From the IMG/VR virus record IMGVR_UViG_2844443253_000004: a stretch of 60,550 nucleotides of DNA; one strand, given 5' to 3'. Numbering within the stretch: position 1 is the first letter of the stretch; every line of letters starts with the position of its first letter. The DNA is from a virus (taxonomy: Duplodnaviria; Heunggongvirae; Uroviricota; Caudoviricetes). Positions 15,698 through 16,207 of this stretch are shown piece after piece. Under the pieces are notes generated by a model. That model had not been told where the DNA came from. It saw nothing but the letters and a program-made list of their open reading frames with translations, and ran no database searches. The position numbers and the translations under genes are program-made.

Positions 15698-16207
15698 ATG
15701 GAGTGGATAAATGCTTTGATGAACTATTTTGTACTTCATCCATATCGCCTATGGGGGCTTCTTTTTATAATAGCGTTCACAAAATCCACTTTACTCATTT
15801 CGGCGATATTGCCACCAGCATCAATTATGATGGCCACTGTAATTACAGTCAGCAAGACGACTCTTTCACCATGGGAAGCTGGAATCACGGTCATGAGTGG
15901 CGCATGGTGCGGTACTATCGTTAATTACCATCTTGGTATAATAATTGGGCATATCCCTCAACTTGCATGTATAATATCGAGCCGTTCCAATACAATAGAA
16001 CGGGTTCGCCTTCAGTTGCAAAATAACTCTGTGTCAATACTTTTCACTTCGCGCTTTATCGCCGTGCTGCGTTACATTGCTCCTTTGGTGGCAGGAATGT
16101 TGCAACTTCATCCAGTGAAAGTGTATACAGTGAGTCTGATTTCAGCTGCTAGCTGGTCAGCACTTTATGTTGGTAGTTTTAGCTTCGTGTTGCCTTTTTT
16201 TAGCTAA
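15698..16207 (+). CDS. DedA-family-like inner membrane protein (prophage moron, opposite strand to late genes)
   Basis: 170 aa, multiple TM segments; motifs ...LPPASIMMATVI..., GAWCGT..NYHLG and ...RFIAVLRYIAPLVAG... resemble DedA/TVP38 signatures. Confidence 0.45.
   Translation: MEWINALMNYFVLHPYRLWGLLFIIAFTKSTLLISAILPPASIMMATVITVSKTTLSPWEAGITVMSGAWCGTIVNYHLGIIIGHIPQLACIISSRSNTIERVRLQLQNNSVSILFTSRFIAVLRYIAPLVAGMLQLHPVKVYTVSLISAASWSALYVGSFSFVLPFFS

Follow-up and report, generated by a model that had tools for sequence, protein, structure and literature searches.

A short DedA-family gene carried as a moron by a defective lambdoid prophage belongs to a divergent subfamily linked to Mg2+ transporter genes

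In this work, we analysed a 60,550-nucleotide stretch of viral DNA (IMG/VR record IMGVR_UViG_2844443253_000004; Caudoviricetes), referred to below as the window, and found that a short DedA/VTT-domain gene at 15698..16207 on the plus strand is very probably a real moron of the DedA superfamily. The gene encodes 169 amino acids (aa) plus a stop codon. It is set between the lysis and the packaging module of a defective lambdoid prophage and is antisense to the late operon. Its annotation as DedA is already present in RefSeq; what is new is its place in a divergent DedA subfamily that lacks the usual acidic residues and is associated with Mg2+ transporters. Polymyxin resistance, the recycling of cell-wall carrier lipid and virulence all involve the widespread DedA proteins, whose mechanism, above all the role of the membrane-embedded Glu/Asp pair, is still debated. 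A natural clade in which Glu is replaced by Lys and the arginines are kept is a ready-made test of the proton-coupling model, and the recurrent Mg2+ transporter neighbours, some of them behind M-box riboswitches, point to a concrete physiological condition.

Moron status follows from a dip in GC content, from the absence of the gene in prophages with the same terminase, and from its recurrence in an unrelated prophage and in chromosomal contexts. The GC content of the gene is 42.2% (39.4% at third codon positions) compared with 52.0% for the window, and a 300-nt profile gives 40-45% over 15500-16300 and 50-53% on both flanks. In the Escherichia coli prophages that have the same TerS/TerL packaging and head module (95-96% identity), homology is lost at 15502 and no DedA gene is found, the only open reading frame (ORF) between Rz1 and the small terminase being one of 61 aa. 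A 78%-identical copy is present, again on the opposite strand at the lysis/packaging junction, in a different lambdoid prophage of Citrobacter youngae whose modules are unrelated (a GpA/DUF1441 terminase, a GH19 endolysin and other holins). In both prophages the gene adjoins the lysis cassette, and in the window it occupies the slot that follows the spanin genes and faces against the late operon. In the C. youngae prophage (locus L003), the gene is flanked on either side by an Rz-like spanin ORF, the two being different (phrog_214/456 and phrog_1026; 7291-7776 and 8736-9005, both on the minus strand), which suggests that the moron arrived with, or inserted into, the spanin region there; a further 119-aa ORF without a family lies on the same strand at 6812-7171 of that locus.

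DNA alignments with the Citrobacter prophage and chromosomal copies, together with the low GC content, delimit a mobile unit of about 600 bp comprising the promoter region, the ORF and about 18 nt beyond it (approximately 15627..16225, plus strand). Similarity begins at GGTGTTTAAG and decays shortly past the stop codon, so that about 70 nt upstream and about 18 nt downstream co-travel with the ORF. The exact protein is encoded on at least 1000 contigs of Shigella/Enterobacteriaceae (S. flexneri, S. sonnei and S. dysenteriae records), and the gene is also intact in the examined genomes resembling enteroinvasive E. coli (EIEC), whose insertion sequence (IS) patterns differ. Only 6 of 5,426 complete E. 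coli genomes have the identical locus, with the gene sitting between an annotated 'lysis protein' and the small terminase, and one of the two examined in detail carries ipaH.

The preliminary description of this DNA had called the gene a moron of an unusual cargo type, and the phage collections agree with this. A nucleotide search of 50,697 phage genomes gave no match, and tblastn against the same number of phage records gave no close homologue, the best match having 30% identity; several of the matches at or below 30% are short unannotated 'phage' records or a Salmonella draft-genome record and may be host DNA. No significant viral counterpart was found in BFVD, and one small PHROG of unknown function is a weak match. 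Among the viral contigs of IMG/VR, 14 carry a 99-100% copy, a further one is the C. youngae contig, and there is one 73% copy, which lies near Mu-type transposase and DinI genes (uncultivated virus genome, UViG, L109). The literature search found no paper on a phage-borne DedA protein, on this gene or on its clade; a 'DedA' match in a paper on Stx2h was rejected, as it proved to be the name of a village.

The ORF is intact and has two possible starts, TTG at 15695 (170 aa) and ATG at 15698 (169 aa). The RefSeq entry of the identical locus (WP_011069285.1, 'DedA family protein', 170 aa) uses the TTG. Because the ATG is common to all homologues, in which the sequence MEW... is conserved, and because the Kosakonia copies have no preceding TTG, the comparison indicates that the likely real start is the ATG. 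A Shine-Dalgarno-like AAGGAA, read from the sequence at 15684..15689 (plus strand), has a GGA core ending 9 nt before this ATG, and the upstream alignment reveals GGAG or GGAA at the same place in homologues. The protein matches the Pfam VTT domain (VTT_dom, PF09335) with 52.4 bits (gathering score 33.9; E 9e-14), residues 41-161 covering profile positions 3-121 of 123, and the same domain is present in all homologues. The NCBIfam equivalogs were not reached: E. coli DedA (NF008102) scored 31 bits against a cut-off of 236, and the two UptA models (NF052604 and NF052605) scored 19.9 bits (cut-off 250) and 16.3 bits (cut-off 300). The membrane protein of DedA type placed by the preliminary description between an Rz remnant and a terminase gene, antisense to both, is thus borne out by the Pfam match, by the RefSeq name and by phrog matches of the two neighbours, and the 73 relative loci described below show that it is conserved well beyond this prophage.

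The ratio of nonsynonymous to synonymous substitution rates (dN/dS) is 0.14-0.24 among the Shigella copy and three Citrobacter copies (C. youngae, C. meridianamericanus and C. amalonaticus), showing purifying selection on the ORF between them. Given this ratio, the 73 loci confirmed by tblastn and the occurrence of the exact protein on so many contigs, the gene is more than a chance ORF.

Relatives of the protein were sought in three ways. A word-indexed search of 5.8 billion proteins found close relatives only in Shigella, Citrobacter and Arsenophonus. A HMMER search with the clade profile over 1.84 billion cluster representatives returned 4,794 DedA proteins at E <= 0.001 and just 12 at E <= 1e-30, with a sharp score gap beneath. 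A scan of one genome per species (GTDB) with tblastn confirmation yielded the 73 loci, at identities of 100% in Shigella/EIEC, 78% in C. youngae, 72-74% in a soil metagenome-assembled genome, C. meridianamericanus and Kosakonia, 57% in C. amalonaticus, 42-53% in about 30 Enterobacter species with Lelliottia and Huaxiibacter, 37-43% in Arsenophonus, 36-38% in Morganella and 34% in Proteus myxofaciens; members from Hafnia and strain bta3-1 were added by a second protein search. These searches show a tiny Enterobacterales-only clade of short DedA proteins of about 167-180 aa. Most of its members are chromosomal, without phage genes within 8 kb. The nearest outgroup (about 75-86 bits) is formed by the DedA modules at the N-termini of DedA-PAP2-LssY_C fusion proteins, which are about 530-700 aa long. 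Many such fusion proteins exist (P0040, P0042, P0043 and P0048), and they might link the dephosphorylation of a polyprenyl or phospholipid substrate to its flipping.

The subfamily is marked by the signature K29-S-T and P39-P-A-S together with R119, R125 and W153. When all retrieved matches were aligned to the profile, Lys occupied the column of E. coli YqjA E39 in every sequence that scored above about 93 bits and covered the site, and Glu or Asp occupied it in every lower-scoring DedA protein bar one with Gln. P-P-A-S replaces the YqjA P-G-D-S in nearly all clade members, placing Ala at D51, a column that is variable in outgroup DedA sequences. The window protein has K29 and A41 in these two columns and does not possess the membrane-embedded acidic pair. 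R119 and R125 (YqjA R130 and R136), S42 (YqjA S52) and W153 are invariant in a 19-sequence clade alignment, a few distant members deviating with Lys at R119 or Tyr at S42, and all signature residues are intact in the Shigella copy. The C-terminal 40 or so residues of YqjA/DedA, corresponding to the last transmembrane helix, are missing from the clade protein.

The replaced residues have known functions in characterized relatives. E39, D51, R130 and R136 of YqjA/YghB are essential residues, S52 is important for function, and the D51A, R136A and S52C variants do not complement (bioRxiv 10.64898/2026.09.20.752871; PMC10846249). In UptA, the equivalent arginines (R112 and R118) bind undecaprenyl phosphate (C55-P), R118 is hydrogen-bonded to E32, and E32 contacts W146 (PMC11474028). 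The Glu of this R118-E32-W146 network corresponds to Lys in the window protein, giving a predicted K/R/R core. An AlphaFold2 (AF2) model built from a 50-sequence alignment is all-helical, with a predicted local distance difference test score (pLDDT) of 77 and a predicted template-modelling score (pTM) of 0.69. In this model of moderate confidence, helix-break-helix elements occur at 15-30/40-53 and 111-118/122-134, where the DedA re-entrant loops are expected, and long helices occur at 58-84 and 139-168. A first run with 19 sequences was poor (pLDDT 58) and was replaced by this one. No solved structure related by sequence or fold was found for comparison.

Set beside the best-known members of the family, the window protein shares with E. 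coli YqjA/YghB the VTT/DedA domain, the arginine pair within SRFIAVLRYIxPLxAG, the serine, and helix-break-helix elements modelled at the same places; in contrast, identity is only 22-23%, Lys and Ala stand for E39 and D51, part of the N-terminus is missing in addition to the C-terminal residues, and the gene is prophage-borne rather than core. With the C55-P flippases UptA of Bacillus subtilis and PA4029 of Pseudomonas aeruginosa it has in common the superfamily and the arginine pair plus Trp (PMC11474028), whereas the glutamate pairing with R118 in UptA is lysine and the UptA cut-offs are missed. PA4029 has been reported to be important for polymyxin resistance (PMC12893004). The N-terminal modules of the DedA-PAP2-LssY_C proteins resemble the window protein in their short core of about 160 aa and in having no D51 aspartate, but they retain glutamate in the E39 column and are joined to a lipid phosphatase, while the window protein is standalone and has Lys. 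Polymyxin resistance, for its part, is connected with PhoP/PmrA-controlled envelope remodelling.

Genomic neighbourhoods tie the clade to Mg2+ transporters. About 30 species of Enterobacter, Lelliottia and Huaxiibacter have an MgtE-family gene about 390 bp from the DedA gene and divergent from it. The Arsenophonus nasoniae group has one on the same strand, about 500 bp downstream. Hafnia and bta3-1 have this MgtE gene at a distance of 2.6 kb, a TetR-MFS (major facilitator superfamily) pair having been inserted in between. At eight Morganella loci, the DedA gene is convergent with corA and directly abuts it, which is an independent event involving a different transporter gene. The survival of the mgtE linkage through a change of orientation and the independence of the corA adjacency weaken synteny alone as an explanation. 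An M-box riboswitch (RF00380; gathering score 44) precedes mgtE in Enterobacter (108.6 bits; locus L032, 7676-7845, minus strand) and Arsenophonus (107.6 bits; locus L011, 8810-8979, plus strand); in Enterobacter it accounts for the highly conserved block between the two genes.

There is precedent for a part of DedA proteins in the homeostasis of Mg2+ and other divalent cations, namely XdfA, which Xanthomonas campestris needs for Mg2+ homeostasis and virulence (PMC10470534), and YqjA/YghB of Klebsiella (PMC10846249). XdfA is likened to the window clade by the tie to low Mg2+, which for the clade is genomic (M-box-mgtE, MgtE-family gene and corA neighbours), and not by sequence comparison; unlike the window gene, it is chromosomal.

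Two further observations were made at these loci. The MgtE-family gene led by the M-box is short (about 333 aa), and the M-boxes are about 95-99% conserved across Enterobacter, Lelliottia and Huaxiibacter. M-boxes are associated mainly with Firmicutes, and their presence in Enterobacterales may deserve a separate note. In Hafnia and bta3-1 (L110, 3820-9007; L112, 3685-7554), the DedA gene follows the MFS gene by 23 bp (Hafnia) or about 150 bp (bta3-1), the TetR gene being divergent, and a second VTT-domain gene of 190 aa lies 0.5 kb downstream on the opposite strand, with a Na/Ca-exchanger gene beyond it in Hafnia.

The region upstream of the gene contains a conserved footprint. Three conserved islands interrupt the AT-rich, otherwise variable sequence that separates the M-box from the DedA start codon in Enterobacter and Lelliottia. 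The first, at about -103, is a direct repeat (T/G)GTTTA-N5-(T/G)GTTTA that matches the PhoP-box consensus at 12 of 12 positions in about 20 Enterobacter species; the background frequency of such sites is 0.009 per kb per strand. The second, at about -66, is another repeat, TGTTGAGGGTTTATTTA, matching 10 of 12, and the third, TTTTAAAT, follows 12 nt past it. Two architectures have been defined for PhoP-activated promoters, one with two direct boxes of which the proximal lies 12 nt from the -10 element (architecture II) and one with a single box at 12 nt (architecture I) (PMC3335776). The pair of boxes in Enterobacter agrees with the layout of architecture II, and its 12-nt distance to the -10 element with that of both. 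An alignment of positions -80 to +3 of chromosomal and phage copies (Enterobacter, Lelliottia and Citrobacter) contains the invariant footprint GTT.A.G....ATT.A-(12-13 nt)-TTAAAT.G. The repeat of the C. youngae phage copy, TGTTTAGGCTCGATTGA, matches 10 of 12 and stands 12 nt from the -10 element. That of the window, TGTTTAAGCCTAAATTA at 15629-15645, matches 9 of 12, stands 13 nt from it and has a 1-nt insertion. The candidate -10 hexamer (TTAAAT or TAAATA; 15659..15665, plus strand) is invariant in all aligned copies. The alignment shows that the proximal repeat and the -10 hexamer, as judged from their conservation, moved into phages together with the ORF.

With the insertion, the direct-repeat element in the -35 region of the window (15629..15647, plus strand), homologous to the invariant footprint, can be read in two ways, as a PhoP-box-like TGTTTA-AGCCT-AAATTA or as a pmra-box-like TTTAAG-CCTAA-ATTAAG (15631-15647), the pmra-box being defined as XTTAAY-N5-XTTAAY (PMC10570014). 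The PmrA-box reading of the Shigella repeat was kept as a lead only: 2.3 one-mismatch sites are expected per window, and the distance of 11-12 nt to the -10 element suits PhoP or PhoB better than pmra-boxes of the pbgP type. A lambda operator-like TATCAC upstream was dropped because it has no dyad symmetry. An Rfam scan of 15300-16500 for a leader RNA gave nothing relevant, only a sub-threshold small nucleolar RNA match, and the gene is not named in the text supplements of a study on the PhoPQ regulon of S. flexneri.

Taken as a whole, these data may be read as pointing to a lysogenic-conversion gene for a lipid-phosphate translocator of DedA type tied to envelope adaptation at low Mg2+, a functional reading to which we give an even chance. 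The gene would be transcribed in the lysogen from its own activator-dependent promoter, the activator probably being an OmpR-family response regulator of the PhoP or PmrA type and the signal low Mg2+ or envelope stress. The product would translocate or bind a phosphate-headed lipid, most plausibly C55-P or an anionic phospholipid, through the arginine pair, the serine and the tryptophan. With a K/R/R pocket in place of the proton-titratable E/R pair, proton coupling would probably be lost or altered. The host rather than the phage cycle would benefit, by remodelling or stability of the envelope where Mg2+ is scarce, for example inside host cells. At low Mg2+, the lipid A modification driven by PhoP/PmrA draws on the C55-P pool. 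A far-reaching extension, which we put forward tentatively and think unlikely to hold in full, is that the 'KST...PPAS' proteins form a functionally distinct DedA class whose charge-inverted core moves or holds a phosphate-headed lipid uncoupled from protons, as a specific part of the Mg2+-starvation response beside M-box-mgtE or corA and under PhoP boxes. Lambdoid phages would have captured this unit with its promoter and brought it to Shigella/EIEC, where it would act as a PhoP/PmrA-responsive factor for fitness or virulence in the intracellular setting of low Mg2+ and antimicrobial peptides.

A number of findings weigh against the lipid-translocator reading or limit it. Taken alone, the window repeat is within background, at 1.3 such sites per kb per strand, and carries weight only because it is homologous to the footprint; the distal box matching 12 of 12 did not travel with the moron. 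A consensus sigma-70 scan called no promoter upstream of the ORF, and neither an intrinsic terminator nor a recognisable -35 hexamer was found; the missing call is consistent with an activator-dependent promoter and is not evidence for one. The copies of Arsenophonus, Morganella, Kosakonia and Hafnia have no PhoP box and their upstream regions differ, so regulation of the PhoP type is not universal in the clade. The mgtE linkage is missing in the Citrobacter, Kosakonia and Shigella contexts, where the neighbours are instead prophage genes, DinI, a porin or an L,D-transpeptidase, and it may in part reflect inherited synteny rather than functional coupling. The structure model is of moderate quality (see above), and the replacement of E39 and D51, two residues essential in YqjA, could have abolished transport instead of altering its coupling. 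Finally, the copies within Shigella are about 100% identical, and selection inside Shigella is therefore not demonstrated.

This last point bears on the possibility that the gene is a neutral passenger in Shigella, an unexpressed relic not yet struck by an IS or a mutation and conferring no trait. The state of the prophage, defective and with terL cut by IS2 and Rz by IS911, agrees with such a fate, as do the near identity of the Shigella copies and the degradation of the promoter repeat relative to Enterobacter. We nevertheless hold it to be improbable, for purifying selection has acted between the Shigella and the three Citrobacter copies, the signature residues, the -10 hexamer, the repeat footprint and the Shine-Dalgarno sequence are retained, and the gene has stayed intact across the many Shigella contigs and in the EIEC-like genomes with other IS patterns. 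Were the gene silent or without a phenotype, it would reduce to an ordinary annotated moron.

Recurrent proximity to M-box-mgtE, an MgtE-family gene or corA in several Enterobacterales lineages would also be expected if the protein took a direct part in Mg2+ uptake, either as a transporter or by assisting or stabilising channels of the MgtE/CorA type, so that the phage copy would improve Mg2+ acquisition by the lysogen. In keeping with this, XdfA is needed for growth at low Mg2+ and for a normal Mg2+ content (PMC10470534), and Mg2+ or Ca2+ relieves the phenotypes of a Klebsiella double mutant in yqjA and yghB (PMC10846249). The Lys and Ala in place of the acidic residues, however, make the core more cationic and unfavourable to a divalent cation, and the nearest relatives are fused to PAP2 lipid phosphatases. 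Moreover, Shigella/E. coli, the recipient of the phage copy, is not known to have MgtE. The best-supported activities of DedA proteins are the translocation of lipids, C55-P and phosphatidylethanolamine (PMC12893004, PMC11474028, PMC10193950). We judge direct uptake to be quite unlikely. Service to the phage itself, either by superinfection exclusion (through the lipid carrier of O-antigen and enterobacterial common antigen or a change of the inner membrane) or by timing of the holin or lysis, seems highly improbable. Its position beside the lysis cassette in two different prophages, the frequency with which morons of this slot modify the cell surface, lambda bor among them, and the influence of DedA proteins on the proton-motive force and the envelope (PMC10846249) speak for such a role. 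Yet no PADLOC defence model matches the window protein at E <= 0.1, its orientation opposite to the late operon means that it is not co-expressed with the lysis genes, and most clade members are chromosomal with no close homologue in the phage genomes searched.

The comparison with bor is one of position and is instructive for the lipid-translocator reading. Lambda bor, like borD of DLP12, occupies the slot directly after Rz/Rz1 on the opposite strand, bor lying 31 nt after Rz, and by analogy both bor and the window gene would be expressed from a promoter of their own in the lysogen and presumably benefit the host envelope. The two proteins are unrelated, Bor being a small outer-membrane lipoprotein and DedA a polytopic inner-membrane protein. 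At this classical slot, the list of lysogenic-conversion cargo would gain a putative lipid-handling protein of the inner membrane, and the prediction is of a prophage gene that may respond to host-like signals.

The immediate neighbours of the gene are remnants. On its divergent side is the small terminase subunit gene (14736..15500, minus strand; phrog_370, 319.5 bits), which is 100% identical in the Shigella-type UViGs. An N-terminal fragment of the large terminase (14102..14893, minus strand; phrog_3717, 275.6 bits) is cut by IS2, as seen from blastn against the relative prophage L001 and from the IS2 ORFs. The convergent neighbour is a remnant of Rz, the i-spanin, with its C-terminal 81 codons only (16296..16541, minus strand; phrog_13 positions 76-153 of 154, 99.5 bits). 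Inside it is a Rz1-like (o-spanin) ORF (16340..16567, minus strand; phrog_3198, 88.2 bits over residues 9-73) with a lipobox-like LIMVVGC, whose native start is probably the Met at about 16531. Homology to L001, which is intact at this place, stops at 16541, where an element begins that truncates Rz (16542..16916, plus strand; orfA candidate at 16578-16916) and runs past 16916. By its OrfA sequence we take it to be IS911-like, and the annotation of the related locus L002 has, at another place, a transposase of the IS911 family.

Several features of the surrounding DNA were recorded in passing. The IS2 copies in the large terminase genes of the window (12798-14117) and of E. coli FDAARGOS_943 (L001, 9514-10833) are at sites about 220 bp apart and are independent events on the same prophage gene, the DedA gene being intact in both. 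A group II intron is present in two inverted copies (17960-19573, plus strand; 25534-27147, minus strand), each with a 507-aa reverse transcriptase/maturase ORF and an Rfam Intron_gpII match of 64.9 bits; the first appears to lie within the IS911-like element that truncates Rz, and recombination between the two might invert the 6-kb segment that separates them. Near-identical tRNA clusters (Met-CAT, Arg-TCT, Thr-TGT and Gly-TCC) occur at 20693-21002 and 31974-32284 (plus strand) in two prophage late regions, and related EIEC prophages have Ile/Arg/Thr/Gly or Ile/Arg/Thr/Val clusters at the corresponding place. Upstream of the prophage remnant that carries the DedA gene, a Mu-type transposase gene (DDE_2, HTH_Tnp_Mu_1/2; 4147-5781, plus strand) adjoins dcuC (1048-2535). 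The second prophage of the window is lambda-like, with a GpA terminase (35909-37876), a tape measure protein and GpJ, and at its far end is a gene for an IpaH-type effector of the type III secretion system (57728-59491, minus strand) with LRR_TTSS and NEL E3 ligase domains; an ipaH gene is likewise found at the flank of the prophage with the DedA gene in EIEC O121.

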